Virus record (IMG/VR): IMGVR_UViG_3300045988_170321 | Span: 1-38,205 of that record | Source: a virus | Strand: one strand, 5' to 3' | DNA length: 38,205 bases | Part shown: positions 6,036-38,205 of the stretch, one piece after another | Position numbering within the stretch: position 1 is the stretch's first letter | Layout of the letters: every line of letters starts with the position of its first letter | Made by a program: the position numbers and the translations under genes | The notes under the pieces: generated by a model | Databases searched by the model: none | Told to the model about the DNA's origin: nothing | Seen by the model: the letters and a program-made list of their open reading frames with translations, nothing else

Positions 6036-6040
6036 GTTAT

Positions 6041-6978: not shown

Positions 6979-6982
6979 GACA

Positions 6983-7159: not shown

Positions 7160-7178
7160 TACGTAAGGAGGGCTAAGC

Positions 7179-8406: not shown

Positions 8407-8633
8407 TAAATCCACAGAAATTCGGGGATATCCTTTTCATCAACCCTGCAAACGATATCTTTATGGTCACACGTGACGGAGAGATCTTATTGCAGACGGA
8501 TAATCCCCGAGCGGCAGTAGTATTTTTGGCAGGTCTGTTCGAGACAAAGATAATAAATCATTTCAAGCCCTTACTGGAAGCAGAAGGGTACGATGAAAAA
8601 GGGGAGAGGGTTAATGACAACGGACGAGTATAA
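8403..8633 (+). CDS. Hypothetical protein
   Basis: ATGA overlap with the upstream gene. Confidence 0.45.
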   Translation: MINPQKFGDILFINPANDIFMVTRDGEILLQTDNPRAAVVFLAGLFETKIINHFKPLLEAEGYDEKGERVNDNGRV

Positions 8634-9643: not shown

Positions 9644-9711
9644 GGGAGCGGAAAAATAAAATGTTTATGGTCTGAGTATAGCACATATTCAGAAGAAAGT
9701 CAAGGTGTAAT

Positions 9712-10110: not shown

Positions 10111-10119
10111 GGTGAGAAT

Positions 10120-11802: not shown

Positions 11803-12796
11803 TGAGTGCCTGGACTGGAGTCTTGAGCAGATAGACCAGTCCATTGTAGCACATTCATATGATATGGCACGCTCTATACTGGAGATCGGCAAGGCTCTCA
11901 AGGCCATTGAAGACGGGAAAAAGTACACCGAAAAAGGATATTCCAGCTTTAAAGAATATATGGAAGACGCATCGGCGCATACATTTGAGTTTAAATATAC
12001 TCAGGCACGGAAGCATATCAGGGTGTACGAACGATTTGGCGGTCGTCTTGACAAGCTTAATTGTGCCAAAATTGAGGTACTCGACGTTCTCAGAGATATC
12101 CCGGAAGAGGATTTTGAAAAGCTCAACGACAGTGGAGAACTTAATGCTATGAGCAAAAGGGAGGCCGAGGAGCTGAAAGCCAAGCTTGAAGCAGCCAATG
12201 AGCAGATATGTCTATTGACTGCCGAAAATGATAAGATAGCTGTCGAAAAAGAAAAAATTACAGCCGACTGCAATAGCTTCAAGGCTGAACGTGATGAATA
12301 CTACGAGCAAATGAAGGGACTTGAAAGCCGACCTGTGGAAACAGTCATTGCAGAGCCTTCCGAGGAACTTCTGAGGTCAATCCGAGAAGAGGCTGCCAAG
12401 GAAGCCGAAAAGAACATGGTATCTGCAAAGTCTGAATATGAGAAAGCAATTAAGGAGCTTAAGAAAGAAAAGAAAGCGGCTGAAAGCAGGGTCAAGGAGA
12501 TAGAAGAAGCTCATAAAAAGGAGCTTGATGATATGTCCGCATCGTTGGGAGCGGACAAGGCAGCCACTGATGAACGAATAAAAGAGCTTGAACGCAAATT
12601 GCAGTCAGCCGAAAAGCCTGCCGATTCGGAGCTTATCGAGTTCAAATTCTATTTTGCCGAGACACAGGACAACCTCAAAAAGTTCCTTAATGCACTCGAC
12701 AAAGTATCGGATCCCGAGAAGAAAGAAAAATTCAAGGGAGCGGCTATTAAGTTTGTAGAAGCCATTCTCGGTGATCTGAAGAAGGAAAGCTTATAA
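11768..12796 (+). CDS. Coiled-coil protein, DUF3102-like N-terminus
   Basis: GGAGGT RBS upstream. The N-terminal ~110 aa are globular and the rest is Glu/Lys-rich coiled coil. Confidence 0.45.
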   Translation: MEETTIISSQHNECLDWSLEQIDQSIVAHSYDMARSILEIGKALKAIEDGKKYTEKGYSSFKEYMEDASAHTFEFKYTQARKHIRVYERFGGRLDKLNCAKIEVLDVLRDIPEEDFEKLNDSGELNAMSKREAEELKAKLEAANEQICLLTAENDKIAVEKEKITADCNSFKAERDEYYEQMKGLESRPVETVIAEPSEELLRSIREEAAKEAEKNMVSAKSEYEKAIKELKKEKKAAESRVKEIEEAHKKELDDMSASLGADKAATDERIKELERKLQSAEKPADSELIEFKFYFAETQDNLKKFLNALDKVSDPEKKEKFKGAAIKFVEAILGDLKKESL

Positions 12797-12809
12797 AGGA
12801 GCCATTCAT

Positions 12810-13412
12810 ATGAACTACACAAAAATTTATGCCGCAGTGGCAAAGAAGAAAACGATATATGTCTGGCAGCCGAACGAAAGTGACCAGTGGCTTATAGTTG
12901 ATGGAGCCATATACAGTGTAAGCGGACTGCCTGACCTTAACTGTGAAAATGTCCTGCCTCTCATAGGTGTTGACAGTGAAACCAGTGCATCATACAACGT
13001 AAGCTATTTCAATGGGAAGAACAAGGATATCTTGCGGAAATACATATACTGCAATGCCTGTGAAGGCGATGGGCTTATGGTCCCCACGAAGCTTGCATTC
13101 AGTGATGTGGTCGTGCTCAGAGGTGAGAGCAGCAATGCTCCTCTTTGCGAGTTTGTAAAAGCGGAAAGCATCAGGCCATTTTCGGGGCAGGGTGTTGAGT
13201 TTATTTACAGACCTACTCCCGATCTTTCGCCGGGGGCCATGATAATCATCAAGGAGGGGCTTATCACAGTGGGAGCGGCCATTCCGTACAGTTTCAAGGG
13301 CAGTTTTAGAAATACAAACACTCTGCGGCATGACCTTCTTGCTGCAGCCCGTGAAATTGAAGAGCAGACCAAAGAAGATGCGGACGAGGAATTTGAGCAG
13401 ACCGAACTCTGA
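12810..13412 (+). CDS. Hypothetical protein
   Basis: ORF with an AAGGAG RBS. Confidence 0.5.
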   Translation: MNYTKIYAAVAKKKTIYVWQPNESDQWLIVDGAIYSVSGLPDLNCENVLPLIGVDSETSASYNVSYFNGKNKDILRKYIYCNACEGDGLMVPTKLAFSDVVVLRGESSNAPLCEFVKAESIRPFSGQGVEFIYRPTPDLSPGAMIIIKEGLITVGAAIPYSFKGSFRNTNTLRHDLLAAAREIEEQTKEDADEEFEQTEL

Positions 13413-13441
13413 GCATTCTCTTCTGCACTATATCAACAACG

Positions 13442-13476
13442 TATCCTATACTATTACATTTATATAGTATAGGATA
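13442..13476. repeat. Perfect 12-bp inverted repeat (TATCCTATACTA, 11-nt spacer, TAGTATAGGATA)
   Basis: Read directly in the 163-bp gap upstream of the Rep-like gene. Confidence 0.8.
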
Positions 13477-13575
13477 TCCTCGCATTTTCGCAAAAATAAA
13501 AATGGCCTAAAAAGGCTTTTAAAAACTCGTTTATAGTATTATCTTTTGAGATTATGAACGGAAGGAAGTGATAAC

Positions 13576-14337
13576 GTGGTACGTGGGTATCTGATGGCTG
13601 TAACAGACATTAACGACGAGCGGCACATCGTTAAGACCTACTCATCGGGCATGATAAACAATCACGGACTGAAAGGCAGAGCAAAGAAGTCCGCTGAGAC
13701 TGCCGACAAGGTGAAGAAGCATAACCAAAAGGTCAGCATTCAGAATTTATGCTGGCTCATGCAGCTGAACTTTGAAGAGGGCGATTATAACCTGTCGCTG
13801 CATTACTGCGCAAACGGTGACAGACCCCTCGATGAGTGGCAGGCGCAGAAAAATGTTGCTGCATTCTGCAAGGACCTGAAAAAATGGTGCAAACAGAATA
13901 TGCCTGACGGATATTCTCTCGATTATCTGTATTGCACACACACTACGACAGCCAGAGGCGCTATCCACCACCACATGATATTACGCAAGGATATCCCGCT
14001 GCACGTCATACAGCAGCTGTGGGCAAAATGGGGCAGTGTTTCCGTCGGGCGCAGCCTTTATAGGGGCTATGATTATTATACGCTGGCGTGGTACTGGATA
14101 GCCGACCCGAAGCATGAGCCGCACCCAAAGGGTATGCGGTCATACATACCGTCACATGGGTTGAAACGTCCTGTAACAGTCCGTGAGATAGTTCCTGCGA
14201 AAACATGGCGCATAAACCCCAAAGCCCCAAAAGGCTGGCGCATCAAAGAGGACACGCTTTACAACGGCGTTGATGTTTACGGATATCCGTACCAGAGCTA
14301 CACGATGATAAAAATATCGGACGTGAAGAGGATTTAA
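13576..14337 (+). CDS. Putative HUH-superfamily rolling-circle Rep-like protein
   Basis: It has an AIHHHMIL (HUH-like) motif and Tyr-rich LYRGYDYYTLAWYW downstream. The GTG start lies behind GAAGTGATAAC. Confidence 0.4.
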   Translation: MVRGYLMAVTDINDERHIVKTYSSGMINNHGLKGRAKKSAETADKVKKHNQKVSIQNLCWLMQLNFEEGDYNLSLHYCANGDRPLDEWQAQKNVAAFCKDLKKWCKQNMPDGYSLDYLYCTHTTTARGAIHHHMILRKDIPLHVIQQLWAKWGSVSVGRSLYRGYDYYTLAWYWIADPKHEPHPKGMRSYIPSHGLKRPVTVREIVPAKTWRINPKAPKGWRIKEDTLYNGVDVYGYPYQSYTMIKISDVKRI

Positions 14338-14370
14338 GTGAGACAAGGATATGCGATAAGGAGGTAAGGA

Positions 14371-14565
14371 ATGACGATAGAACAGCAGAAGCAGCATTTT
14401 TGCCTTAGCAAGGAAGAGATAGAAAAGGCTTGGGAAGATCAGCACAATGGTGACACGTTGGTCAAGGTGTCGTTAAAATATCACTGCGGCATATCTACCC
14501 TTTACCGAGGGTATCGCATATATGGTCTTGGCACTCCTGTGCGGAAGCAAGGTAATAGAAAGTGA
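14371..14565 (+). CDS. Small HTH-like protein
   Basis: Contains GISTLYRGYRIYG. AAGGAGG RBS upstream. Confidence 0.4.
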   Translation: MTIEQQKQHFCLSKEEIEKAWEDQHNGDTLVKVSLKYHCGISTLYRGYRIYGLGTPVRKQGNRK

Positions 14566-14912
14566 CATCTGAATTCTTAAGATGGCTTGTAGGTCTTATA
14601 CGGTCAGGCGATGTACACCCGTTTTATATCTCTACCGAGTGGCGGAGGTCCAGAGCAAAGGCAATGAAGTACTATCACGGGGAATGTCAGCGATGCAAGC
14701 ATGAGAAAACTCCAAGTGTTCTTACGCCTGCAACGATGGTACATCATGTAAAACCTGTAAAAAAATACCCTCAATATGCCCTGTCTTTGTTTGTTTTTAA
14801 TGCACAAACAGGGAAAAAAGAGGCTCAACTTATCCCTTTGTGCAATGACTGTCACGCAGCTGTCGAAAGCAAGACAATGAAGGCGACAGAAGGATATCCG
14901 GAGCGATGGTAG
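14562..14912 (+). CDS. HNH endonuclease (packaging-associated)
   Basis: Motifs are CQRC...HH..P......CNDCH. It lies immediately upstream of the terminase genes. Confidence 0.8.
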   Translation: MTSEFLRWLVGLIRSGDVHPFYISTEWRRSRAKAMKYYHGECQRCKHEKTPSVLTPATMVHHVKPVKKYPQYALSLFVFNAQTGKKEAQLIPLCNDCHAAVESKTMKATEGYPERW

Positions 14913-15076
14913 GGCGTTTTTTTGGGGTATCCCCCCTTTCAAAAAAAGGCGGAATTTTGAGCCTTTTCATATCGGGCATAGGGACAGGACAATGTCGGGA
15001 GGAGCGGAAATTTTTGTTCTACGCACATATGCGCACATGCGCACGCGCGCGTAAATAGTATAGGAGGCAACAGTAT
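14913..15076. other. Candidate cos/packaging-site region
   Basis: Non-coding gap between the HNH and small terminase genes. It contains ACGCACATATGCGCACATGCGCACGCGCGCGT (about 15020-15053). Confidence 0.3.
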
Positions 15077-15394
15077 ATGGGAGCGGCCAAAAGGCAGAAA
15101 ATCACGGACATAAGAGAGTCACTGCTTGAACAGCTCAGAAGCTCGGGCAGGGACACTCCGTATTACATTGACATGGTGGACGCTTATCTTGACCTGTGGA
15201 GGGGAAGAGAGGCATTCAGAAAAGACATTTCAAAGAGAGGGTATTTTGTCTGCGAGACGGACAAGTATGGAAACACATGGAACAAAGTCAATCCCTCGGT
15301 GGCGGCGAGGCAGGGCACTACTGTGAAAAGGGCGGCTCAGCTTATAAAGCTTGGACTCAATAATCCCTGCGCTGACGATGATGAGGAGATGTGA
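15077..15394 (+). CDS. Terminase small subunit, P27 family
   Basis: The call rests on size, sequence pattern (...YYIDMVDAYLDLW...NPSV...) and position. Confidence 0.65.
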   Translation: MGAAKRQKITDIRESLLEQLRSSGRDTPYYIDMVDAYLDLWRGREAFRKDISKRGYFVCETDKYGNTWNKVNPSVAARQGTTVKRAAQLIKLGLNNPCADDDEEM

Positions 15395-15423
15395 CAGGCG
15401 TGTCCGTTGAAAGAGGTGATAAC

Positions 15424-15639
15424 ATGGCAGTCGGTAACAAAGGGAGCGGCGCGTGCTGCTGCTTCGGGTGCGGCAGGCGGTCTCAGTCCTGTCACGCTCA
15501 GTGTGAAGAATACAGAGAATATCTGAAAAGCAATGCGGAGAAGCGCAATGCGCATCTGAAAGAGAGGCTTGCACTTCAAGGCTACTCCGAGCACGTGGCA
15601 AGGTGCATCGAGAGAAGAAACAGGAAGAAAAGGCAATAA
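15424..15639 (+). CDS. Small Cys-rich basic protein
   Basis: Cys cluster CCCFGCGRRSQSCHAQC. AGAGGTGATAAC RBS upstream. Confidence 0.45.
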   Translation: MAVGNKGSGACCCFGCGRRSQSCHAQCEEYREYLKSNAEKRNAHLKERLALQGYSEHVARCIERRNRKKRQ

Positions 15640-15657
15640 TGCTATTGGGAGGTACAT

Positions 15658-15930
15658 ATGGAAAATACACATACGGCGATAATCAGGTTCCGTGACGGCG
15701 ACAGTGCGGAGGTCAAGGGCTGTGCTATGATGGGCGTTGACGCTTCTGGGAATGTGATTGTCATGGAGATGGGCACAGGCGACAAGCTGCTTATCAATTT
15801 TGACTGTGTGAGATATGCAGGCTTTGAGGATACGGTGGGAGCGGTCTCTGTCAATGACAATGAGCCTGAGACATTCCGCAGTTCCCGCAGCAGGACGGGC
15901 AGAGGCAGGCAGGGGGGCAATGGCGTATGA
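15658..15930 (+). CDS. Hypothetical protein
   Basis: GGGAGGT RBS upstream. Confidence 0.45.
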   Translation: MENTHTAIIRFRDGDSAEVKGCAMMGVDASGNVIVMEMGTGDKLLINFDCVRYAGFEDTVGAVSVNDNEPETFRSSRSRTGRGRQGGNGV

Positions 15931-16043
15931 TGATGTTTGTGGCGGGCTTCCTTATCGGGTGTTCTATGGCAGCGGTACTGATCGGAGTTGCTGCCTGCGT
16001 TATAGCTTCGGGCGATGCGGAAAGGAAGAATAAAAAGAAATGA
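15927..16043 (+). CDS. 38-aa single-pass membrane peptide (not in the ORF track)
   Basis: Translation is MMMFVAGFLIGCSMAAVLIGVAACVIASGDAERKNKKK. It has ATGA overlaps with both neighbouring genes. Confidence 0.45.
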   Translation: MMMFVAGFLIGCSMAAVLIGVAACVIASGDAERKNKKK

Positions 16044-16606
16044 ACAGAATAGAGGATTTCGTTGAATTTGTCGGAGGTCATATATGGGACGCTGATGTAA
16101 TAGCGGGACGTCTCGAGGAGCTGGGATATTTTTCTGCGCCTGCATCAATCAGATATCACGGAAACGTTACGGGCGGTTTGTATGAACATTCCAAGGCGGT
16201 AACGCTGGAGTTGCTGAACCTTACGGAAAAGCTCGGTCTGAGGTGGGGGAGACGTGACAGCATTTACATTGTCGGAATGTTTCATGACATATGCAAGACT
16301 GACGACTACAGTCGTGAAATTGTTCGGGAAAAGGCGGCTGACGGAAGCGTGGTGTGTGAAACCGAGGGCAAGTGGGTGTACAACACTGATATGCTTTTAC
16401 CAGGACATGGAGAAAAGTCCGTAATTATCGCACAGCATATTTTAGGCACACTGACGCAGGAAGAAATCATGTGCATCAGATGGCATATGGGAGCCTTTGA
16501 CGACAGAGAGAACTGGAAGTATTACAGTGCGGCTGTAAAGAAATATCCCAATGTGCTATATACGCACGTGGCGGATATGACTGCGTCGAATATTTTGGGG
16601 ATTTAG
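16040..16606 (+). CDS. HD-domain metal-dependent phosphohydrolase
   Basis: Motifs are YEHSKAV...GMFHDICK...GHGEKS. Confidence 0.7.
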   Translation: MNRIEDFVEFVGGHIWDADVIAGRLEELGYFSAPASIRYHGNVTGGLYEHSKAVTLELLNLTEKLGLRWGRRDSIYIVGMFHDICKTDDYSREIVREKAADGSVVCETEGKWVYNTDMLLPGHGEKSVIIAQHILGTLTQEEIMCIRWHMGAFDDRENWKYYSAAVKKYPNVLYTHVADMTASNILGI

Positions 16607-16621
16607 CGGAGGGCGAGAGGA

Positions 16622-17863
16622 ATGAACAGAATAAATGCAAACGAAATAAACGAATTATTCGGCGTTACCGAAAGCTTCATGCTGCCCGATAAGTTAATGG
16701 GGCTACTGTTCTCTGAAGAGATATACAGTATATTTGAAAAATATTGTGACATGCAGGGTGATTTGTCCTATGACGGATTTACCGATTATTTTCAGGAAGA
16801 GCACAGCAGCCGCAAGGCTATGATGCAGGATTTCACGCCAAAGGAACTGACGGGGCTTGTGGCGCGAATTGTGGGGGAAGATGTAAAAAGCTGCCTTGAC
16901 GTTTGTGCAGGAACCGGAGGATTGACCATAGCTATGCACGGTGTTGCACCCGAATGCAAATTTTACTGCGAAGAGCTTTCAAAAAGGGCATTGCCGCTTT
17001 TACTGTTTAATCTTTCGGTGCGAAACATATCAGGATATGTAATAAACAAAGATGTCTTGTCAGGTCAGGTTTACGGAGCGTGGCAGATAGTTCAGGGAGA
17101 GCACTTTGGGAAAATTGTTAAGATTGACAGTGTTCCCGATGTGCCTGTGGACGTATGTATAACAAATCCGCCATATTCGTTGAAATATGATTTTACAGAA
17201 AAGCCAGAGGACGGCAGATTTGCGGAATACGGGTATCCACCAAATCAGTTTTCGGACATGGGATTTGTTATTCATGGAATATCACGGCTGAAGGAAACAG
17301 GGCAGGTAATTGCAATTTTACCGCACGGCGTATTATTCAGGGGAAACAGAGAACTGAATATCAGGCGAAAAATGATTAAGAAGGGCAATGTACACGCCGT
17401 TATTGGTCTGCCCGAAAAGCTGTTTTTAAACACACAGATACCTGTTGCAATTATCATATTCGGGAAAAATTCTGTCGAAAAAGTTATCTTTATTGACGGA
17501 TCAAAGGAATTTGAAAAAATCGGCAAGCAGAACCGTCTGCGACGGGGAGATGCCGACAAGATACTGCGCACGCTGAAAAATGCCCTTGAAGTCGAAAGGT
17601 ATTCGCATATAGCTGACATATCGGAAATACAGGACAATGACTATAATCTGAATATTCCAAGGTATGTTGATACTTACGACCCGCCACAGCCTATAGACAT
17701 TGTGGCAGTCACAAAGGAGCTGTATGAAAACGAGCAGAAAATAAAACATTGCGAAGCCAAAATATATGCAAGCCTTGCAGAGCTTACGGCGAGAGACGAA
17801 AAAACAAGGGCTGAGCTTGAAGAAGTTCGGCGGATATTCAGGGAGATGATTGAACACAGATGA
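16622..17863 (+). CDS. N6-adenine DNA methyltransferase (HsdM-like, N6_Mtase family)
   Basis: Motif I is DVCAGTGGL and motif IV is NPPYS. Confidence 0.85.
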   Translation: MNRINANEINELFGVTESFMLPDKLMGLLFSEEIYSIFEKYCDMQGDLSYDGFTDYFQEEHSSRKAMMQDFTPKELTGLVARIVGEDVKSCLDVCAGTGGLTIAMHGVAPECKFYCEELSKRALPLLLFNLSVRNISGYVINKDVLSGQVYGAWQIVQGEHFGKIVKIDSVPDVPVDVCITNPPYSLKYDFTEKPEDGRFAEYGYPPNQFSDMGFVIHGISRLKETGQVIAILPHGVLFRGNRELNIRRKMIKKGNVHAVIGLPEKLFLNTQIPVAIIIFGKNSVEKVIFIDGSKEFEKIGKQNRLRRGDADKILRTLKNALEVERYSHIADISEIQDNDYNLNIPRYVDTYDPPQPIDIVAVTKELYENEQKIKHCEAKIYASLAELTARDEKTRAELEEVRRIFREMIEHR

Positions 17864-27021: not shown

Positions 27022-30000
27022 ATGGGAAAATTCGGCTTTACTGCGGTGATAGGTGCCGACTATTCGGCGCTCAACAACGCCATGAAGGAGATAGTCAGCA
27101 GCTCCAAGAAGCTCAACTCGGAGCTTAAGCAGATAAACAGCGCTCTTAAGCTTGACCCCGAAAATGCTGTGCTTGCGGCGCAGAAGCTTGAAGTCATGGG
27201 CGATGCCGCAAAGGAAGCGCAGAAAAAAATCGAAAAGCTGGAATCCCAGCAGGAAGCTATGAACAAGGCTCTGCAGAACGGGGATATAAGCGCTGAGTAT
27301 TACAGGGAGTATCAGAGGGAGATTGAAAGGGCCGAAAGGACTGTAAGAGAGTTTACAAAGGCACAGAATGAGGCTCAAAAGGCGGCAGAGGACTCGGCGC
27401 AGGCACTGGCGGAAGCTCAAAAGGCAGCGGAAAATCCGGCTCACACACTGAGGGAGGCTTTAAAAGAAATCGACAGCAGCTCCAAAGAACTCAAAATTGA
27501 GATGGAGCAGATAAACAGCGCACTTAAGCTTGACCCGGAAAATATCATGCTTGCAGCACAGAAAATGGAGGTACTGAAGCAGTCCGCAGAGCAGGCGGAA
27601 AAGAAGCTGGCAGAGCTGACGAAGCAGCAGGAAGCAATGAATGCGGCTCTTAATGCAGGTGAGATATCCGACAGTGATTACCGAGAATATCAGCGTGAAA
27701 TAGAAAAATGCAGCAGGACCATAAAAGAGTACAGGCAGGCAAATGAGCAGGCGGCAAACGCTGCCCAAAAGCAGAGTAATGCGTTTGAAGAGCTGAAAAG
27801 TTCAAGTGCCGACCTCGATAAGACTTACACAAACGCCTTAAACGAACTTAAAGAAGTCCGCTCGGCTATGAACTCCACTGGAGAATCCTCGGTGCTGTTC
27901 AGGCAGAAAATGCAGCTTTTACAAACTGCATCAGATGCACTCAAAGCCAAGCTTGAAATGCTTAAAAATGCGCAGGAACAAATGAAAAGCGCATTTGAGA
28001 ATGGCAATATTTCAGGGGAAGAATACAGGGAGTTCCAGCGTGAGATTGAAAACACAACTGCTGAGTTAAAATTGCTTGGCAATGAGGCTCCGAACGCTTC
28101 CCAGTCTGTAGGCGGATTTGGGGACACGGTCAAGGCCATAATCACTTCCAAGGCTATTATCGGACTGGCAGAGGGCGCAAAAGCGGCGGCAGAGGCGCTT
28201 ATCGACCTGGGAAAATCATCTGTTGAAAGCTATGGAGAGCTGGAACAGAACCTGGGCGGTGCCGACGCTGTTTTCGGGCAGTATTCGGAAAGCATCAAAA
28301 AGACCGCCGAGGACGCATATAAGACCATGGGAACGTCCCAGTCGGAATATCTGGCAACGGCAAACAAGATGGGTGCGCTCTTCCAGGGTTCGGGCGTGGA
28401 ACAGCAGAAGTCGCTGGAGCTTACCGAAAAGGCTATGCAGCGTGCCACGGATATGGCATCTGTTATGGGTATTGAAACCTCTGCGGCATTGGAGGCAGTG
28501 ACGGGAGCGGCAAAAGGCAACTACACCATGATGGATAATCTGGGTGTTGCCATGAATGCAACGACCCTGAAAGCATACACGCTTTCCAAGGGGCTTGACG
28601 TTGCCTGGGACAGCGCCTCGAACGCCCAGAAGGCTGAAATAGCCATGCAGTATTTTTTTGAGAATACAGAGCAGTATGCGGGCAACTTTGAGCGTGAAGC
28701 GAGAGAGACTGTAAGCGGATCTATCGGTTTGCTTACCGCCTCGATAGAAAGCCTTATGGCAGGGCTGGGAAATTCCGAGGCTGATATCGTCAATCTGACG
28801 CAGAATGTTATTGATGCGTTCGGCAGTGTAAAGGATAACGTAATGCCTGTATTGCAGGCAGTGTCTGATGCTCTTCCGCAGGTGGCGCAGGAGCTGGTTG
28901 AGGCTATTCCCGAGGTTATTCCCGAGGTTGCGGGAATGGCGGAGGAGATAATCGCCGCACTGGGAGAGGGGCTGGAAGCACAGCTGCCGAACATTACAGA
29001 CATGGCGGTAGAGCTGCTTACGGCATTTGCGCAGAAGCTTACAGAGGCACTGCCTGCTATTGCCGACGGTGCTGTGCTTATAGTTACGACCCTGGCTGAC
29101 GGCATAGGCGAGGCGCTGCCCGACCTGGTCCCTGCGGCTGTGGAGGCTGTTGTTAAAATAGCAGAATCGCTGCTCGACAACATAGACGTTATTCTCGATG
29201 CCGCCCTAAAGATCATCGAGGGGCTGACCGAGGGGCTTTTCAGGGCGTTGCCCGGGCTTTTACAGGAAGCGCCCACGATCATTGCCAAGCTTGGTACGGC
29301 GCTGATAGATGCAGCGTATGAAATTATCATCGGTGTGCCCGAGGCTATTGTTAACGGCATTGTTGATGGTCTTGGCGGATATGACTGGACGGGCGGTGCA
29401 GACAAGGCTATAGGAAACCTCAAAGCAGCGCTTGATAAAGCGGCAGAGAAGTGGAATATATCGGAAATATGGGCAGACAAGATAGTTGCCGATGATGGCT
29501 ATGAGGTACTGGGGTCTCAGGACGAGGCGGAAGCACGGCTTGATGCTGCTCTGAAAGAGCTTGAAGAAAAGCGTGGTCAGATACCCGAGGAGTACAGGCA
29601 GATACAGGAAGAGCTTAAAAAGGGAGCGGAAGAGACTGCTGACAAGCTGGCGGACACAAGCACCGAGATAGCTGAGGCGGCAGGGACTGCGGCTGATGTT
29701 GGTGTTTCGGAGACAAAGAGCGAAAATGGCGGCGATGAAAGCGGTGTAAATCAGAAGTCTGATATGCTCGACAAGGAGCTTGAAGAGCTTGAACACAAGT
29801 ACAAGACCCACAAGGTAACGGAAGAGCAATACTGGGCTGAGAGAAAAAGCACTCTTGAAAAATACCGTGATGATAACAGTGAGGAATGGAATGCTCTATA
29901 CGACAAAGTAACTGAGCATTATACCAAGCTTGCGGAGGCTGAGAAAAAGGCAAAGGAAGCGGCTTTGAAAGAAGATACCGCCGAGGCCAAGAAGCGATTT

Positions 30001-30951
30001 GATGCGCTGTACTCTCAGCTCAGCGATGAAAAGATCACACGGGAGCAGTTCAATGATGAATATGCCGCTCTTACGGAAGAGCTTGCTCAGAAACAGATAG
30101 ACATCTCGGAATATGCTTCCGATAAAATAGCATCATATGACGAGAAAGTCCGCAAGGAGGAAATGACTGCCTGGGAGAAAGCTTCAAAGGAAATAACGGA
30201 CAAAATAACCAAGACCTATGAAAATGTCACACAGGCATATGAAAAGGCGAAAAGTCAGCTCATTTCCTCGGCAAAGCTCATTGACCAAAAGGTCACGGAC
30301 ACATCGGGAGCAGACAGATATATCCTTACGGACTTTGAGAAAAAGCGCAAGGAGCTTGCAAAATACCGCAAGGACCTTGAAAAGCTCAAAGAGACGGGCA
30401 TTTCCGACGACCTTATGGAGCAGGTGATGAGCCTGAGCTATGACAGTGGAGAACGCCAGGGATATATTTCCGAATTACTTAAAATGAGTGACAGCCAGAG
30501 GAAAAAATATTACAAGGACGTTGATGCGTTCTATGCCGAGGCTGACAAGACTGCCGCATTCGAGGTACAGGACGATCTCACTGAGGCGGACAGGATAGCC
30601 AAAGAGGGCATTGAAAGCATATATGGCAGTATGCCTGCCGACGCATATCAGAAGGGCGTTGAAACGGCACAGTCGTACATTGATGGCATTAACAAGACCA
30701 TGGCGGACGCTGATGCGCTCAGGTCCATGGGCTCGGATTTCGGGGAGCGGAGCCAGAACAGCAAAATGCAGTCGGCTGCATCGGGAAGCTCGGGCAGCAC
30801 CTATTCGCCGTCGGGCACGGCACAGGGCGGCAAGAGCAGCTTCTACAGCGGAGATACGAAGATCGTTATCAATGTTGCGGGCAAGAATGTGATAGTAAGC
30901 ACCATTGAGGAGCTTATCCGCAAGGGCAGACTGGCTGACAGCAGGAGGTGA
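27022..30951 (+). CDS. Tail tape measure protein (1309 aa) with three N-terminal tandem repeats of about 107-126 aa
   Basis: The call rests on length, coiled-coil composition and an Ala/Gly-rich central hydrophobic region. Repeated motifs are INSALKLDPEN and Y/F-R-E-Y/F-QREIE. Confidence 0.85.
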   Translation: MGKFGFTAVIGADYSALNNAMKEIVSSSKKLNSELKQINSALKLDPENAVLAAQKLEVMGDAAKEAQKKIEKLESQQEAMNKALQNGDISAEYYREYQREIERAERTVREFTKAQNEAQKAAEDSAQALAEAQKAAENPAHTLREALKEIDSSSKELKIEMEQINSALKLDPENIMLAAQKMEVLKQSAEQAEKKLAELTKQQEAMNAALNAGEISDSDYREYQREIEKCSRTIKEYRQANEQAANAAQKQSNAFEELKSSSADLDKTYTNALNELKEVRSAMNSTGESSVLFRQKMQLLQTASDALKAKLEMLKNAQEQMKSAFENGNISGEEYREFQREIENTTAELKLLGNEAPNASQSVGGFGDTVKAIITSKAIIGLAEGAKAAAEALIDLGKSSVESYGELEQNLGGADAVFGQYSESIKKTAEDAYKTMGTSQSEYLATANKMGALFQGSGVEQQKSLELTEKAMQRATDMASVMGIETSAALEAVTGAAKGNYTMMDNLGVAMNATTLKAYTLSKGLDVAWDSASNAQKAEIAMQYFFENTEQYAGNFEREARETVSGSIGLLTASIESLMAGLGNSEADIVNLTQNVIDAFGSVKDNVMPVLQAVSDALPQVAQELVEAIPEVIPEVAGMAEEIIAALGEGLEAQLPNITDMAVELLTAFAQKLTEALPAIADGAVLIVTTLADGIGEALPDLVPAAVEAVVKIAESLLDNIDVILDAALKIIEGLTEGLFRALPGLLQEAPTIIAKLGTALIDAAYEIIIGVPEAIVNGIVDGLGGYDWTGGADKAIGNLKAALDKAAEKWNISEIWADKIVADDGYEVLGSQDEAEARLDAALKELEEKRGQIPEEYRQIQEELKKGAEETADKLADTSTEIAEAAGTAADVGVSETKSENGGDESGVNQKSDMLDKELEELEHKYKTHKVTEEQYWAERKSTLEKYRDDNSEEWNALYDKVTEHYTKLAEAEKKAKEAALKEDTAEAKKRFDALYSQLSDEKITREQFNDEYAALTEELAQKQIDISEYASDKIASYDEKVRKEEMTAWEKASKEITDKITKTYENVTQAYEKAKSQLISSAKLIDQKVTDTSGADRYILTDFEKKRKELAKYRKDLEKLKETGISDDLMEQVMSLSYDSGERQGYISELLKMSDSQRKKYYKDVDAFYAEADKTAAFEVQDDLTEADRIAKEGIESIYGSMPADAYQKGVETAQSYIDGINKTMADADALRSMGSDFGERSQNSKMQSAASGSSGSTYSPSGTAQGGKSSFYSGDTKIVINVAGKNVIVSTIEELIRKGRLADSRR

Positions 30952-31337
30952 AAAGTGTGTCAAAGGAATTTAATGGCGGATACACTATCAAGATAAACGG
31001 TACGGAGTGGGAGCTGCTGAACGGATACTCTCCGTCCTGGGCGGAGGAAGAGGCCGAGAACTTTGAAAACTATGACTTTTCGGATTTTACTCAGTTAAAG
31101 GGTGTTCGCTTCTCGGCGGCGTTCAAGGTGGGAAATCTTTCGGAAGAGGATAAAAGCGCTCTGCTTGATCTTCTGGCTTCACGCCTGGTGAGCATAGAGT
31201 GTCCCGATTACAAGGGAAATGTAAAAATAAGCGGCGTATCGGCTGAGCTTATCGCCGCAAAAAGTCTCGGAAAATGGTATTCGGTATCTTTCAATGCCGC
31301 CGCAGTTGCGCTCACGCCTCTCGGCGGCGGGCTTTAG
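30948..31337 (+). CDS. Hypothetical tail protein (GTG start)
   Basis: Overlaps the tape measure stop codon. Confidence 0.45.
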   Translation: MKSVSKEFNGGYTIKINGTEWELLNGYSPSWAEEEAENFENYDFSDFTQLKGVRFSAAFKVGNLSEEDKSALLDLLASRLVSIECPDYKGNVKISGVSAELIAAKSLGKWYSVSFNAAAVALTPLGGGL

Positions 31338-31341
31338 CCTG

Positions 31342-32355
31342 GTGCTTACTGCGGGAGGCACTGAGGTCACCAGGTTCGGCAATATCACTGTGACAAAGGC
31401 TGTTGACGGGCTGGGAACGTCGGGAATATGCACTTCTCAGCTTTCGTTCGAGACCCCTGCTCCGTTTAATGCTTACAGGGCAGCTCCTGTTGTTCTTACG
31501 GGAGTTTCGGGCGTAGGAAAATACTATATTGACAGCAGGTCGCAAAGCGGCGGCGTGGTGACGGTGACGTGCCTCGACCGCATGGCTTTTTCCGATGAGG
31601 ATTTCCCATATGCTTCCATAGACAGCTCGGTGCCTAAGAATGTTCCCATAAACACCGTAATGGATCTTATCATACGGACTGTAGGAGAGCTTACCGGGTG
31701 GGGCGGCATTCCCTCATGGCTTACGTCTATTTCCAGGACTGAGCTTCAAGGGACCTGTTCCGATATCCTTACAAAGATATCGGAGGCGTGCTGCGGCGTA
31801 TTCTACATAACAGATGAGCAGAACCTGCAGTTCCTTCCTTACGGCAATACCTCCGGGCAGGTGAATGCAGACGTACATACGGCGCTTGATGTTGGCTGTG
31901 AATTTACGGCGGCGGGCATCAAATGCACTGACGGTGACGGAAATGTTATCACAAGAGGCGACGCTTCGAGGAAGTACGACAGCATTTGCATAGCCTCAGA
32001 GCTTATCACTGACAGCGGCTGCGAGGAGATATGGGGACGTGCCGAAAACTATACCCACGCTGCATATTCCTGCCAAAGGTGCAGACTTGACGGTATCCCG
32101 CCTACGGGTGGAACGGTAAATTTTGCGGGGAGCGGCATCATGCGTGCAGGATCTGTTACGGCAAGCATCAGCAAGGCGGGAATATTTGCGGAGGTGAGCA
32201 ATCCTGAGCCGTCGGATTCCGAGATAGGCATGAGAGGACGCAATCTGCGTGAGAGCGACAGCAAGGTAAGGTATGGACGCAGCGGTGCCATGATGTTTAC
32301 CAAATATCAGGGCGTTGTGATGGTGGACGGAGAGGAGAAGGTTAACAGTGGCTGA
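31342..32355 (+). CDS. Putative tail tip / baseplate protein (start uncertain)
   Basis: Called from context only. Confidence 0.45.
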   Translation: MLTAGGTEVTRFGNITVTKAVDGLGTSGICTSQLSFETPAPFNAYRAAPVVLTGVSGVGKYYIDSRSQSGGVVTVTCLDRMAFSDEDFPYASIDSSVPKNVPINTVMDLIIRTVGELTGWGGIPSWLTSISRTELQGTCSDILTKISEACCGVFYITDEQNLQFLPYGNTSGQVNADVHTALDVGCEFTAAGIKCTDGDGNVITRGDASRKYDSICIASELITDSGCEEIWGRAENYTHAAYSCQRCRLDGIPPTGGTVNFAGSGIMRAGSVTASISKAGIFAEVSNPEPSDSEIGMRGRNLRESDSKVRYGRSGAMMFTKYQGVVMVDGEEKVNSG

Positions 32356-32581
32356 TAACGACGGATATCCTTTCGTGTCCTATGGCGAGGGGCTGTTTTT
32401 TGACGGCGGGGACATACACTGTCGATATCCTTGTCTGTCATTTGAACGCATTGATGGCGAGACTTCGGGCAAAGCAATATACGAATATGGACCGTACATT
32501 ATTACAGTGACGTATGATATTGACGGCGGGAAACGGAAGAATGCCCACTGGACACGGGTTTACAAGGAGGCGGGAACATGA
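32348..32581 (+). CDS. Hypothetical tail-module protein
   Basis: Overlapping, coupled ORF. Confidence 0.4.
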   Translation: MADNDGYPFVSYGEGLFFDGGDIHCRYPCLSFERIDGETSGKAIYEYGPYIITVTYDIDGGKRKNAHWTRVYKEAGT

Positions 32582-33369
32582 TATTAGACGGTGGGCTTAT
32601 TTTACAAGCGTTGGCGGGCGGGGGAAGCTCGGGAGGTGGCAAGGTCAAGCCCATAACTATAACGGAAAACGGCACATACAATGTTTCCGACGCTGAAAAG
32701 GCTGAGGGGTATGTTGGATTTGCGCCTGTGACGGTTGATGTGCCGCAGAGCTGTTTGAATATGTGTGATTTGTTTGAGCAGCAGACACCAATCGCAGTTA
32801 TACCGCTGTTTGGAGACTACACCGCCAAACTGGTACAGCTGCCTGAGGGGGTATGGCAAAGTCGGATTAGACAATACCAAACCTACATTTATGAAAATAA
32901 TTATGAAACCTATTGTAGCGATGATAGAAAAATCATTACTTGCATTCTAGGTGTTTATCGTGGCGATACACTGCTTTATCTTGGCTATCCCACAACTAGT
33001 GATAGTTCGCAGGACGGTTACAGTGCAGAGAATGTTTATGACGATGACGGCAACATTATAGCGGTAAATGTGTGGAAATCGCACAATGTGATGTGGACGT
33101 ACCGATTTTCTGAGATGACTGTTTCAGAAAATGTAAATATCACATCATTTTATAAATACATACAGGTGCCAACGGCAGGGATTACAACCTATTACGCATC
33201 GGATGGTACAGTGACAGAAAACACATTTAAAAACACGTGGAATTTAACCATTAGTGTGGGTGGTTCTGATTGGTGGTTCACCCGATTTACGGGCGATGAA
33301 CTGATAGCCCAAATGGATATCTGTGCGCAAGATGTATATGCTGAGTATCGGAAAAGACAATCAACCTAA
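32578..33369 (+). CDS. Putative tail fibre / receptor-binding protein
   Basis: The N-terminus carries ITITENGTYNV...GYVGFAPVTVDVP, a motif common in tail fibre proteins. The C-terminal part is more AT-rich. Confidence 0.45.
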   Translation: MILDGGLILQALAGGGSSGGGKVKPITITENGTYNVSDAEKAEGYVGFAPVTVDVPQSCLNMCDLFEQQTPIAVIPLFGDYTAKLVQLPEGVWQSRIRQYQTYIYENNYETYCSDDRKIITCILGVYRGDTLLYLGYPTTSDSSQDGYSAENVYDDDGNIIAVNVWKSHNVMWTYRFSEMTVSENVNITSFYKYIQVPTAGITTYYASDGTVTENTFKNTWNLTISVGGSDWWFTRFTGDELIAQMDICAQDVYAEYRKRQST

Positions 33370-34922: not shown

Positions 34923-35610
34923 CATCAAAATGGATACAGGCACTGCCAACACCACTGTTGCCAAAGGGCGATCCATTGAATGGATAGTGATCCACTACAC
35001 GGCAGGCACATCATCGGCTGCGGGCAGCGCACACAATCTTGCGGCATGGTTCAGGGCGGGAGCAAATCCCGCCAATCCTGCCAGCGCTGATTTTATTGTG
35101 GACGACGAAAATGTTGTCTGCTATAATCCTGACATTGCAAACCGTTATTCATGGGGCGCAGGCGGGGTAAAATACACCAAGATGTCCACGTCAGAGGGCG
35201 GCAGATATTACGGCAAGTGCAGGAACAGCAACTGCATCAACATTGAGATTTGCAGCAACAAGAAAAACAGGAAGTCTCTGAGCGCAGATGACACGGACTG
35301 GTATTTCACCGATGCAGAGCTGGCATTGGCTGCTGAGCTGGTCAAGCATCTGATGAAAACATACGGCATTTCAGCTGACCATGTTATAATGCACCACCAG
35401 GTGACCGGCAAGTTGTGCCCTGCGATGTGGACACATTCGGAGGCAGAGCTTGAGGGCTGGAAGAAGTTCCGGCAGATGTTTATGCCTGCTGCCGAAAGCA
35501 ATCAGATGTTTTATGTGCAGGTCGGGGCTTTTAAGTCTCGGGAGAATGCTGAGGCATACCTTAAAACAGTGAAAAAAGATTATCCGGGTGCATTTATTAA
35601 ATCAATGTAA
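34909..35610 (+). CDS. N-acetylmuramoyl-L-alanine amidase endolysin with a C-terminal SPOR domain
   Basis: Amidase_2 pattern (IVIHYTAG...NIEIC...HHQVTGKLCP). The SPOR-like tail reads FYVQVGAFKSRENAEAYL. Confidence 0.85.
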   Translation: MMSINIKMDTGTANTTVAKGRSIEWIVIHYTAGTSSAAGSAHNLAAWFRAGANPANPASADFIVDDENVVCYNPDIANRYSWGAGGVKYTKMSTSEGGRYYGKCRNSNCINIEICSNKKNRKSLSADDTDWYFTDAELALAAELVKHLMKTYGISADHVIMHHQVTGKLCPAMWTHSEAELEGWKKFRQMFMPAAESNQMFYVQVGAFKSRENAEAYLKTVKKDYPGAFIKSM

Positions 35611-35613
35611 GAC

Positions 35614-35663
35614 AAAAAAATCGCCGTCGGTAAGAGTGGACTAAGCTCTTACCGACGGCGTTT
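35614..35663. terminator. Bidirectional terminator with a perfect 15-bp stem
   Basis: CGCCGTCGGTAAGAG (35622-35636) pairs with CTCTTACCGACGGCG (35646-35660). It is flanked by A7 on one side and TTT on the other. Confidence 0.8.
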
Positions 35664-35665
35664 GA

Positions 35666-36364
35666 TTATTCAAATTCTTCTTTTAAAATGCCATCATTAA
35701 AATACATATCATGTTTCTTATCAACAAATTTACGTATATCATATTTATAAGTATGACCATTTATAGTAATTTTTCCTTCGAGAAATCCAGATAATTTTTT
35801 TGCAAGTATAGCATTGGTTGTATTATCCGCTAAATGCTTACTCTTCATAAATGTTGGAAGTTTAGCGGGTATATCATCAATCTTTAGAATAGGTTCTAAA
35901 TCAAGTTTACGCTGATCTTTGTCATCTTTTTCGGTAATTACGCCGATTTTTATACATGTTAATTCATATTCGTCTAATTTACCTACACAATATACTACAT
36001 CTTCTATACTACTTTTCCATTGCCCTACTAGTTTAAGTATTACATCTATTCCAGAAAATGTTTTTTTCATATCATATAAGTAGGCATGGGCTTTTTTATC
36101 TTTGGAGAAAAATATATACATAAAGTCAACTTTTTTTGCATTCTCCAAAAAGTTTAATTGAAATTCATTTCCGATAAACGCATATTCATCGCCAGAAAAA
36201 GCAGAATGAATGTATAATGATTCGTTTTCTTCTTCTTCTTTTAATAAAATAACATGACTATTGCATGATTTGTCGATAAGCTTTGGTGTGTTTTTCTTAA
36301 GGGTTAAACAGCTTGTTTGTAATAGTTCGGCTTTTTTAAATAATTTTGCACGTAAATGATTCAT
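35666..36364 (-). CDS. Hypothetical 232-aa protein with a possible PD-(D/E)xK nuclease motif (VDFMYIFF...AYLYDMKK)
   Basis: It starts 5 nt downstream of the ATPase stop. It is very AT-rich. The motif was read by eye only. Confidence 0.6.
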   Translation of the reverse strand: MNHLRAKLFKKAELLQTSCLTLKKNTPKLIDKSCNSHVILLKEEEENESLYIHSAFSGDEYAFIGNEFQLNFLENAKKVDFMYIFFSKDKKAHAYLYDMKKTFSGIDVILKLVGQWKSSIEDVVYCVGKLDEYELTCIKIGVITEKDDKDQRKLDLEPILKIDDIPAKLPTFMKSKHLADNTTNAILAKKLSGFLEGKITINGHTYKYDIRKFVDKKHDMYFNDGILKEEFE

Positions 36365-36369
36365 AATTG

Positions 36370-37749
36370 TTAATCTTCCTCAGCTAATTTTATAGCGTCC
36401 TGATATATTTTGTCATTAGTACTGTTAAACAAAGAAAAATCAAAGCCGATTCCAAGTAAAATATTGTTTGGTATTTCTTCTACTATGGTTTTGCCTTGTT
36501 TTATGATAAATTGATAAGCGTGAACATTTGTATTATTAAGAATGTCATCATTGTCATATCCTAATTTTAATGCTAAGTCGTATTTGTTATTTTTGGCAGA
36601 CATTGTGATAAGATTATTGATTGCTGCAACCATGGTATCGCTATGGGTACTTACGATCATTTTATAACCAGCATTTACCATTCTTATTAAAAGACGCGCT
36701 AACTGTAATTGCTTTGTTGGATGTTGACAAGTGTCAATTTCATCATATAATATCATATTTGGACGTATACTACTGGTTAGAACTTGACATATTGGGGCTA
36801 GTTCTGATACTAGTGATGAGGATAGATAAATAGGAAGGGTATCCTCAGAACCATTAGGTGTATATACCATAGAATTACCGACTTTGGTGAGATTTCCGTT
36901 AATTATGTTATTAGTGATAAAAGATAATATTTTTTTATTTCCTTTTGAAGCCAATTCACTAGCTTTATGCTTTAATAAAAACATAAGAAAATTATATACG
37001 GGTTCAGTAAGCCCATATTCGTTTTCTACTTCATCCTTTTCATCTTCTGCAAATACTACGTCGCTGGTAGTTTCATTATTTCTTAAATCATTTGCTAAAT
37101 AATTAGCATATAACAACATAATACCTGATCTGGATGCTGGCAAATAAATAATTGAATTATTTTCGGCTTTTCGATTGCTATTTATCTGTACTCCAATATT
37201 ATCTGATAAAATAAAAGATAAAAGTTCTTGCTTGATAGTTCCCTCAATGAGTGACTTGGGATAACTTTCAAAAAATCTTATTGTCAGTGTTTTGCTATCA
37301 CTTCTTGTGATTTTGTACGTTTCAAAATGTTGACTGTTATCTTTTTCAACTACTGGAGATAAGCCTTCATAGCTTAATGTATAATTAAATATTAAATCAT
37401 TTAATTCTATACTCAATTCTTCAATCTTCAATTTTTTGGTATGGAATATCTCTTTAATAATTCTATCCTTATTGTTGTAAAGAAACATATTGATACAATC
37501 TTGCAGGCTGAGCAGAAATCCTTTATCAGAGGAATCTATACTTATAGGATTTTCTGAAATATTAATTTCTTCAAAATCTTGTAATGCTTCAGTAAATTTC
37601 TTGTCATTTGAAAATGAAAAAATCACGCCATAAATTAGTTGCATTAAATAAGATTTACCAGAATTATTTTCTCCTACAAATATCGAAAAGTTACTCACAT
37701 CTATATTAGCAGATGAGATTTTTCCAAAATTGCGTACTTTAATATTCAT
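36370..37749 (-). CDS. ABC/AAA_15-AAA_21-like ATPase (459 aa from MNIKVRNFG)
   Basis: Walker A is GENNSGKS and Walker B is MILYDEID. It also has an STHS H-loop-like motif and a YLPASRSG Q-loop-like motif. Confidence 0.75.
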   Translation of the reverse strand: MNIKVRNFGKISSANIDVSNFSIFVGENNSGKSYLMQLIYGVIFSFSNDKKFTEALQDFEEINISENPISIDSSDKGFLLSLQDCINMFLYNNKDRIIKEIFHTKKLKIEELSIELNDLIFNYTLSYEGLSPVVEKDNSQHFETYKITRSDSKTLTIRFFESYPKSLIEGTIKQELLSFILSDNIGVQINSNRKAENNSIIYLPASRSGIMLLYANYLANDLRNNETTSDVVFAEDEKDEVENEYGLTEPVYNFLMFLLKHKASELASKGNKKILSFITNNIINGNLTKVGNSMVYTPNGSEDTLPIYLSSSLVSELAPICQVLTSSIRPNMILYDEIDTCQHPTKQLQLARLLIRMVNAGYKMIVSTHSDTMVAAINNLITMSAKNNKYDLALKLGYDNDDILNNTNVHAYQFIIKQGKTIVEEIPNNILLGIGFDFSLFNSTNDKIYQDAIKLAEED

Positions 37750-37797
37750 ATTTTTCACCACATAAAAAAATATTGCCATAAATCAATCATTTTTTTT

Positions 37798-37825
37798 ATT
37801 ATATCATAAAAACAATAATTGTCAA
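37798..37825 (-). promoter_or_regulatory. Consensus promoter of the ATPase cassette (TTGACA, 16-nt spacer, TATAAT)
   Basis: The -35 hexamer is at 37825-37820 and the -10 at 37803-37798 on the minus strand. Confidence 0.65.
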
Positions 37826-38020
37826 GGGGAATAATACTATTAGCTGATTGCTCTTATTATATAACATTTATAATGTATTATACATCACATTGCATAAGCG
37901 TGATAGAGCATCATTTGTATATGCAAGTAAGTACAATCGCATTGATAATTCTTCTAATAAGATATGCGTAATGGTGTAAAATAGTACAACAATAAAAAAT
38001 AGACACACCTGCATATATTT

Positions 38021-38042
38021 TGACACCCATTTTGACACCCAT
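38021..38042 (+). promoter_or_regulatory. Candidate integrase arm-type sites: TGACACCCAT twice (38021-38030, 38033-38042)
   Basis: The same 10-mer, in the same orientation, occurs at 117-126 and 128-137. Confidence 0.5.
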
Positions 38043-38109
38043 CTTTGCAAAAAAGTGAGCAAAAAAGCACTGTTTTGAGCAAAGCATACAAGCAAATATT
38101 AAAAATAAA

Positions 38110-38155
38110 CAGCCCCTTAAACCACGCATTATAGCGGTTTAAGGGGCTGTTTTTA
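38110..38155. terminator. Strong hairpin terminator (14-bp stem) abutting the tRNA 3' end
   Basis: CAGCCCCTTAAACC (38110-38123) pairs with GGTTTAAGGGGCTG (38136-38149). T-runs flank it on both strands. On the minus strand it lies just downstream of tRNA-Pro. Confidence 0.75.
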
Positions 38156-38205
38156 TTGGTCGAGGTGACGGGACTCGAACCCACGGCCTCTTCGTCCCGA
38201 ACGAA
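38151..38205 (-). repeat. att core copy (attR-type), identical to 1-55
   Basis: Perfect 55-bp identity. The window ends inside the tRNA. Confidence 0.9.
38157..38205 (-). tRNA. tRNA-Pro (anticodon CGG), 3' portion from about nt 28 to CCA. The 5' portion lies beyond the window.
   Basis: The reverse complement reads TTCG-TTCGGGA-CGAAG (loop U33-CGG-G37), AGGCC, GTGGG-TTCGAGT-CCCGT, CACCTCG-A-CCA. C1:G72 and A73 are typical of bacterial tRNA-Pro. Confidence 0.75.

Follow-up and report, generated by a model that had tools for sequence, protein, structure and literature searches.

The DNA analysed here is virus record IMGVR_UViG_3300045988_170321, positions 1 to 38,205, and this whole stretch of 38,205 nucleotides (nt) is called the window in the following. 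Between the endolysin gene and attR at the right end of the window lie two adjacent minus-strand genes, gene A for an ATPase of 459 amino acids (aa) and gene B for a protein of 232 aa. In our judgement this cassette is probably a prophage-carried and lysogen-expressed anti-phage defence module, belonging to the class in which an OLD-type ABC ATPase is paired with a separate PD-(D/E)xK nuclease. The architecture and the ATPase are already known; the effector family is new, unmodelled and unnamed. A first inspection made without database searches (the sequence-only reading) had proposed a candidate uncharacterised defence system at this position. The status as a candidate and the novelty of the effector family hold up, but the architecture has precedents.

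The cassette and its control elements

The last late genes on the plus strand are a holin-like open reading frame (ORF) and an Amidase_2 endolysin, which ends at 35610. Downstream of the endolysin follow two minus-strand ORFs at 36370..37779 and 35666..36364, separated by 5 nt. The ORF coordinates confirm the two coupled genes that had been described between endolysin and attR, transcribed opposite to the late operon. The guanine-plus-cytosine (GC) content lies at 0.45-0.54 in positions 30000-33000, at 0.40-0.51 in the last late genes (up to 35600) and at 0.25-0.31 across the cassette (35600-38000), about 10-25 points under the rest of the phage. The sharp switch to AT-rich DNA past the lysin terminator is therefore real. 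Neither the ORF list nor the sequence revealed a third gene between promoter and attR. Judged from the sequence, the cassette is an AT-rich, separately transcribed module adjoining attR.

A sigma-70-type promoter is located at 37798..37825 on the minus strand. It consists of TTGACA, a 16-nt spacer and TATAAT with a preceding TG extension, and matches the consensus in 12/12 positions, as the sequence-only reading had indicated for a near-consensus promoter of the cassette's own. Enrichment of promoter-like sites as a class gives no support, as 18 were found in the AT-rich stretch and 16 +/- 3.7 were expected. The call is based on the perfect and well-positioned consensus and on its recurrence, because the diverged cassette of another prophage (loci L001-L003, see below) also carries a perfect TTGACA-N16-TATAAT about 70 nt upstream. 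The position of the promoter bears on the start of gene A. The mechanical ORF reaches 37779, but the start is most likely M11 at 37749, since a 100% identical database protein of 459 aa (MFR0736192.1, from an Oscillospiraceae metagenome-assembled genome, MAG) and the homologues begin there; the start at 37779 is disfavoured because the -10 box would give a leader of only about 12 nt. Gene A is accordingly given here as 36370..37749 (-).

A second perfect 12/12 sigma-70 consensus lies antisense within the ATPase gene at 36724-36751 (+). It was considered as a regulator and rejected, as it occurs only in identical copies of the cassette; because it is absent from the diverged L001-L003 cassette and overlaps the Walker B codons, it is probably a chance match.

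The strong hairpins reported on both flanks were found again. The hairpin at 35622..35660 has a 16-pair stem with 10 GC pairs, and because of an A7 run before and a T-rich stretch after the stem it is predicted to work as a bidirectional terminator that can serve both the lysin gene (+) and the cassette (-). The hairpin at 38107..38152 (-) has a 19-pair stem and directly follows the 3' end of the transfer RNA (tRNA) contained in attR. It probably terminates this tRNA gene in its reconstituted form, and would putatively shield the cassette promoter from read-in. The genes themselves are closely linked. A GAGGAAG ribosome-binding site for gene B is situated inside the end of gene A (intergenic gap and site at 36365..36384 (-), minus strand ...GCTGAGGAAGATTAACAATTATG), and this site together with the 5-nt gap implies that translation of B would be coupled to that of A. 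The genes overlap or are no more than 2 nt apart in the seven other sequence-diverged loci.

The ATPase and its 232-aa partner

Pfam assigns gene A to AAA_15 (6.4e-22). The best match in PADLOC is the PD-T4-4_A model PDLC04033 (4.8e-39, 132.8 bits), with residues 11-454 of gene A aligned to profile positions 1-443 of 460; PDLC04032 reaches 3.8e-25. After PD-T4-4_A follow weaker matches to PDC-M47A, AriA (a secondary match at 2.4e-24), NsnB, Old, GajA and PtuA (1.8e-8), of which those to GajA and Old are restricted to the N- and C-terminal ATPase motifs. The AlphaFold2 (AF2) model of gene A has a predicted local distance difference test score (pLDDT) of 84.7, and Foldseek pairs it at E 1e-10 to 1e-8 with the ABC ATPase heads of PtuA from retrons and Septu, of SMC and Rad50, and of AriA. 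By sequence, the PDB entry that matches gene A best is an OLD-family nuclease. Pfam, PADLOC and Foldseek thus agree with the earlier placement of the protein among the AAA_15/ABC ATPases of the PARIS, Septu, Gabija and OLD kind. The protein ends after a C-terminal extension and contains no fused TOPRIM domain.

The conservation of the ATPase motifs was scored on 46 homologues, down to 37% identity. In the Walker A motif GENNSGKS (37651..37674, -) residues G26, N28, N29, S30, G31 and K32 are invariant, and the same is true for P204, R207 and G209 of the LPASRSG motif (37123..37143, -). Within the Walker B motif and D-loop ILYDEID (36733..36753, -) D336 is invariant and Y335 and E337 are conserved to at least 90%, and the H-loop STHS (36640..36651, -) is invariant at S367, H369 and S370. 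An SS signature is invariant as well. The four motifs named in the sequence-only reading can be read directly and fall on conserved columns. As the catalytic motifs are kept intact across the 46 homologues, the ATPase looks active. In an hhalign comparison with a homologue of WonA, the ATPase of the WonAB system discussed below, LPASRSG aligns with the motif FIPASRS, in which the exchange R182A abolishes defence by WonA (PMC12137116).

Gene B (35666..36364, -) encodes a predicted PD-(D/E)xK-like effector from a family without existing models. Gene B and five relatives had no PADLOC match at E <= 10, and gene B matched nothing better than E 0.05 in Pfam, NCBIfam and PHROGs, where sub-threshold matches to DOG1, lectin and MinC were rejected as noise. 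Scans of all 73 family members with the hidden Markov model (HMM) libraries yielded scattered single matches, including one to Herpes_UL24 at 0.0039, and the sole match of the family profile in a PDB sequence search, tyrocidine synthase, was spurious. The 56 close homologues (45-62% identity, 190-250 aa) are all unnamed. An exhaustive HMMER search of 1.84 billion protein representatives gave 87 clusters of the family, and a scan of the genome contig collection gave one Ruminococcus MAG.

Residue conservation in gene B was determined from a 73-sequence alignment with members down to 15-25% identity. The 'PD' aspartate D80 (codon 36125..36127, -) is present in 73/73 sequences and stands at the start of a predicted strand (81-86). 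The (D/E)xK motif D98-M99-K100 (codons 36065..36073, -) lies in the predicted strand 91-102; position 98 is D in 65/73 and E in 8/73 members, position 99 is hydrophobic throughout, and K100 is found in 73/73. The acidic residue E67 upstream of these strands is conserved in 72/73, Q115 in 71/73 and E43 in at least 71/73. The D-x17-D-x-K arrangement noted before is therefore real, and the conservation of E67, D80, (D/E)98-x-K100 and Q115, with D and (D/E)-x-K on consecutive strands, corresponds to a predicted PD-(D/E)xK signature. The AF2 model of gene B (pLDDT 92.1, predicted template modelling score 0.88) contains the strands 81-86 and 91-102, a helix at 106-129 that includes Q115, and a strand at 134-146. 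In the model this order is the one expected of a restriction-endonuclease core (beta2-beta3-alpha2). The idea of a PD-(D/E)xK core was therefore borne out for the motif and its placement on strands, but the structure search returned only weak matches. The top Foldseek matches (E 0.01-1, template modelling score 0.2-0.28) are enriched in PD-(D/E)xK nucleases and comprise R2 RLE, Avs3, Cap4, bunyavirus and arenavirus endonucleases, Nt.BspD6I and UL24/UL76.

An unrelated long protein, P0253 (872 aa), contains seven repeats that resemble the last ~30 residues of the gene B profile, each a GKVTIxGxTYxYDIR-like beta hairpin; Pfam finds only DUF5004 and DUF7290 in this protein. On account of these repeats the C-terminal part of gene B may be a repeat-derived binding module.

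In 8/8 sequence-diverged loci examined (L001-3, L004, L005, L007, L009, L013, L014 and L015) an ATPase gene is located immediately upstream of the gene B homologue, and these partners are AAA_15 ATPases of 425-467 aa. For at least 22/56 effector clusters the longest contig is equal in size to that of an ATPase cluster, which suggests that both lie on the same contig. The gene pair is consequently conserved beyond this phage, from prophages to chromosomes.

Comparison with PD-T4-4, WonAB and related systems

Two described systems resemble the cassette most closely in architecture. PD-T4-4 from E. coli ECOR58 is an 'ATPase, nuclease' pair that protects E. coli (Vassallo et al. 2022), and its second protein is classed as a PD-(D/E)xK nuclease in the literature. 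Like the cassette it resides on mobile elements and is built of two neighbouring genes on one strand, of which that for the ATPase comes first, 1-5 nt ahead of the other. The ATPase (~460-480 aa) is likewise of the AAA_15/ABC type, and the small second protein displays D-x16/17-D-x-K followed by Q. As a side observation, a complete PADLOC-verified PD-T4-4 is nearly the sole cargo of the K. pneumoniae plasmid pKPN6 (L011, 4.3 kb) and of related 4-8 kb Klebsiella ColE1-type plasmids.

The second system, WonAB, is a prophage-borne combination of an OLD-type ABC ATPase and a novel restriction-enzyme-fold protein (Adams et al. 2025, PMC12137116), and is related to an operon that Krishnan et al. (2020, as cited in PMC12137116) noted when surveying ABC ATPases. 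Neither gene of WonAB is dispensable for defence, nor are the motifs of the ATPase and the lysine of the nuclease; WonB is lost in ATPase mutants, a complex via the C-terminal extensions is predicted, and infection is aborted once phage DNA replication has started (PMC12137116). The cassette has in common with WonAB the location in a prophage and the two-gene combination of an OLD-type ABC ATPase with a small divergent protein, which in the cassette is a candidate restriction endonuclease (REase) and whose core motifs align in register, at marginal scores, with those of WonB. Unlike WonB, which has ~140-195 aa and an ELKG motif within the pattern CD...VELKG...Q, gene B comprises 232 aa and its family has mostly DxK, and homology between the two is not detectable beyond ~45-57 core columns (probability 15-57%). 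The searched part of the homologue tables of the WonAB paper lists no Huintestinicola, Fibrobacter or Ruminococc* entry and neither of two ATPase accessions of the family (PMC12137116).

PARIS, Septu, Gabija and P2 OLD likewise have a nuclease governed by an ATPase of this ABC superfamily, which acts as sensor or regulator, and gene A has PtuA and AriA among its closest neighbours in structure. The second components of these systems are different. Unlike in PARIS, gene B shows no match to AriB, DUF4435 or TOPRIM; unlike in Septu, there is none to HNH or PtuB, so that the library scans confirm the absence of TOPRIM and HNH noted earlier; and unlike in Gabija and class 1-2 OLD, there is neither a fused TOPRIM nor a match to UvrD helicase/GajB. 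The statement that the pair cannot be assigned to a named system accordingly stands for gene B, which matches no model, but not for the combination of ATPase and PD-(D/E)xK protein, which is that of PD-T4-4 and WonAB.

Profiles of the narrow gene B family (A1), the broadened gene B family (A4) and the ATPase family (A5) were compared with the known systems by hhalign. The WonB-type sequences were taken from the tables of the WonAB paper (PMC12137116), and genuine PD-T4-4 loci were enterobacterial plasmids found by tblastn in which both genes were verified by PADLOC. On the ATPase side A5 matches verified PD-T4-4_A with a probability of 99.3 (E 3e-20) over the C-terminal half, and a WonA homologue from Maridesulfovibrio with a probability of 97.5 (E 5.5e-12) over 337 columns including the IPASRS motif; both alignments include the C-terminal extension. 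With phmmer the match of gene A to WonA was weak and confined to the motif regions, and the pairwise identity is low. Gene A is nearer to PD-T4-4_A than to WonA.

On the effector side the signals are marginal. The narrow profile A1 gave nothing useful against WonB and PD-T4-4_B (E ~0.1), and signals were obtained only with A4. This profile matches 9 WonB-type sequences with a probability of 57% (E 1.1e-4), a set of 15 WonB-type sequences with 15% (E 1.8e-3) and three verified PD-T4-4_B sequences with 7.7% (E 4.5e-3). An unrelated ATPase family used as negative control reached 0.1% (E 0.51). The alignments with WonB-type sequences span just 44-57 core columns, and D, (D/E)xK and Q are in register in each alignment of A4 with the known effectors. 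As a calibration, PD-T4-4_B was compared with the WonB-type sequences (36%, E 3.7e-4) and scored no better than the gene B family against either. We conclude that gene B probably shares a catalytic core with WonB and PD-T4-4_B, yet represents a separate family that is recognisable in neither.

One could argue that the cassette is simply a divergent PD-T4-4 and that the 232-aa protein is a PD-T4-4_B orthologue that has drifted past the reach of the HMMs. We consider this possible but unlikely. The sequence-only reading had itself named PD-T4-4 among the systems whose assignment to both genes would speak against a new system, and gene A indeed has its best match there, in addition to the same gene order and tight spacing as in genuine PD-T4-4 loci. 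Both effectors also show D-x16/17-D-x-K and then a conserved Q, in register at the E value given above and above the shuffle null. Against this, not one of 73 members of the gene B family is recognised at E <= 0.01 by PDC-M47B or any of the four PD-T4-4_B models, BLASTP finds nothing for the effector, the hhalign probability is low, and the profile match to WonB-type REases is at least equally good. The score of gene A on the PD-T4-4_A model, 133 bits, compares with 304-856 bits for genuine members, and its BLASTP alignment to PD-T4-4_A is limited to the N- and C-terminal ATPase motifs. The hosts differ as well, being gut and rumen anaerobes for the cassette and Enterobacteria for PD-T4-4.

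By analogy with PD-T4-4 and WonAB, we expect the following for the phenotype, complex formation, nuclease activity, trigger and target of the cassette. Its own sigma-70-type promoter would drive transcription without dependence on the late operon, and B would be translationally coupled to A. The ATPase would form a dimer, head-to-head via the ABC motifs, and hold the 232-aa effector inactive on its C-terminal extension; in a survey of nuclease-NTPase systems complex formation was universal. A cue from the infection by another phage would alter the ATP-binding or hydrolysis cycle of the ATPase, and this change would release or activate a metal-dependent nuclease site formed by E67, D80, D98, K100 and Q115. 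The nuclease would then cut nucleic acid and halt the infection, with the infected cell probably being sacrificed.

Several observations weigh against a defence module with a nuclease effector. PD-T4-4 cut none of the DNA substrates tested in vitro, and WonAB does not simply degrade DNA (PMC12137116); because of both findings the target could be something other than bulk DNA. The putative nuclease nature of gene B is based on the motif, the order of secondary-structure elements and a marginal profile similarity with hhalign probabilities of 8-57%, and its model has no Foldseek match at E <= 1e-3 in PDB or BFVD. Although 0/70 column shuffles attained the observed score in any of the three A4 comparisons, this null is lenient, as shuffling destroys the strand/helix periodicity. 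In the model no canonical N-terminal helix bearing the first acidic residue is apparent, and E67 follows a strand. Gene B is also 40-90 aa longer than WonB or PD-T4-4_B, with 20-40 aa given for PD-T4-4_B by itself, and it has extra beta-rich parts at the N- and C-terminus. Finally, the gene B family was not found in GenBank phages, PLSDB or IMG/VR.

These points lead to another explanation, in which the 232-aa protein is not a nuclease: it could act as a sensor or adaptor in the system or be a different kind of enzyme, with conserved acidic and lysine residues that bind a ligand, so that the output of the system is a different one. The extra domains, the missing significant fold or HMM match to any nuclease and the inactivity of PD-T4-4 on DNA would fit this explanation. 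We regard it as improbable, as E...D...(D/E)-hydrophobic-K...Q is kept on those strands and that helix where it is expected, the motifs align in register with WonB and PD-T4-4_B, two families of nucleases paired with ATPases of this clade, and the equivalent lysine of WonB is essential for defence (PMC12137116).

With the nuclease reading of gene B, a further-reaching version of the defence module can be formulated. The 232-aa protein would found an undescribed effector family with an REase-like core between unique beta-rich domains, independently recruited by the PD-T4-4/WonA ATPase clade. The cassette would then be a distinct defence system, so far undetectable, that occurs in gut and rumen anaerobes, responds to a trigger of its own and possibly acts on a target other than DNA. 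The chances for and against this version appear to us evenly balanced.

Genomic contexts and the prophage frame

The pair occurs in hosts from Oscillospiraceae to Fibrobacter and in diverse surroundings. Loci L001-L003 (~6500-16700) hold another prophage, which differs in its tail genes, has an NLPC_P60 lysin and occupies the same locus in the host (PfkB and GerA operon). There the cassette is just 53-57% identical and has the same position and the same convergent orientation, so that it stands at the prophage end beside lysis genes in two different prophages. Such divergence at an equivalent site suggests that the module has been associated with the prophage end for a long time. In L004 (1071-4130) the pair is chromosomal and lies ~2.5-5.5 kb from XhoI-type restriction-modification genes and a HerA-like ATPase. 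The neighbours are an XhoI-type restriction enzyme, an N6/N4 methyltransferase and a DUF87/HerA-like ATPase, and this neighbourhood looks like a defence island. L013 is a mobilisable element and L015 a conjugative element, whereas L014 and L009 are isolated chromosomal insertions among housekeeping genes. The partners in Fibrobacter sp. UWB12 (L007) and in the other genome L009 match the ATPase profile with probabilities of 97.8 and 98.7.

The identical endolysin is indexed in 159 blocks of the assembly collection, and the cassette was present in 8/8 distinct neighbourhoods examined. The sequence-only reading had called the site between lysis module and att a prophage defence hotspot. As all eight identical-lysin neighbourhoods hold the same cassette and no variable cargo, a hotspot of this kind is unsupported at this resolution.

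The fixation beside an identical lysin would also be compatible with an addiction or stabilisation module of the toxin-antitoxin kind that retains the prophage or mobile element instead of a dedicated anti-phage system. The occurrence on prophages, a conjugative and a mobilisable element points in this direction, and for ATPases of the AAA_21 type the Pfam description mentions toxin-antitoxin-like systems, too. We nevertheless give this explanation little weight, as the cassette contains no small labile antitoxin-like gene or DNA-binding regulator, the isolated chromosomal insertions of L014 and L009 speak against it, and the closest characterised relatives were discovered by phage selection or challenge. 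A role in the phage life cycle (recombination, degradation of host DNA or exclusion of close relatives only) is very improbable: the cassette is inside a prophage next to the lysis genes and Rad50 and SMC heads are structural neighbours of gene A, but it has its own promoter, a direction of transcription opposite to that of the late operon and terminators on both sides, shows the low GC content described above, occurs as the same pair outside any phage, and the gene A model lacks a coiled-coil insertion of the Rad50/SbcC type.

For a defence module of this type the practical consequences concern mainly annotation. PADLOC 2.0 would call only an orphan PD-T4-4_A-like ATPase at these loci, and prophage-borne immunity in the abundant gut Oscillospiraceae is therefore under-counted. 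The 73-sequence alignment could seed a detection profile for the effector. With gene B the ATPase clade has a third effector family, beside PD-T4-4_B and WonB, which supports the view of ABC ATPases as interchangeable sensors that swap nuclease modules, and the cassette offers a comparison point for the triggers and targets of PD-T4-4 and WonAB. Immunity, if conferred, could shape phage-host dynamics in the human gut, given the frequency of the lysin and the constant presence of the cassette next to it. For defence catalogues the system is a useful addition, and it will be no surprise to specialists.

A perfect 55-nt direct repeat (family D4, 100% identity) at 1-55 and 38151-38205 represents attL and attR, and the window is therefore exactly one integrated prophage from attL to attR. 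Read from the sequence, the reverse complement of the repeat is the 3' end of a tRNA with T-arm, acceptor stem and CCA; ARAGORN found no complete tRNA in the window because the window end cuts the tRNA gene. The host is an Oscillospiraceae bacterium, and an ATPase identical to that of the window is annotated in Huintestinicola butyrica. A scan of the window against Rfam returned no RNA family. This includes the early region at 5782-6712, where a repeat (families D1-D3, 77-100% identical) that contains the GC-rich hairpin-like element AAAGCCCCCGCAGGGCACACCACGGGAGCGGA is present three times with a spacing of ~350 nt. A probable integrase ORF is located at 104-1357 (-). The 15-nt motif TTTTGACACCCATCT occurs once just inside attL (114-128) and as a tandem pair just inside attR (38018-38032 and 38030-38044), and these copies may be candidate arm-type binding sites of the integrase or an excisionase.

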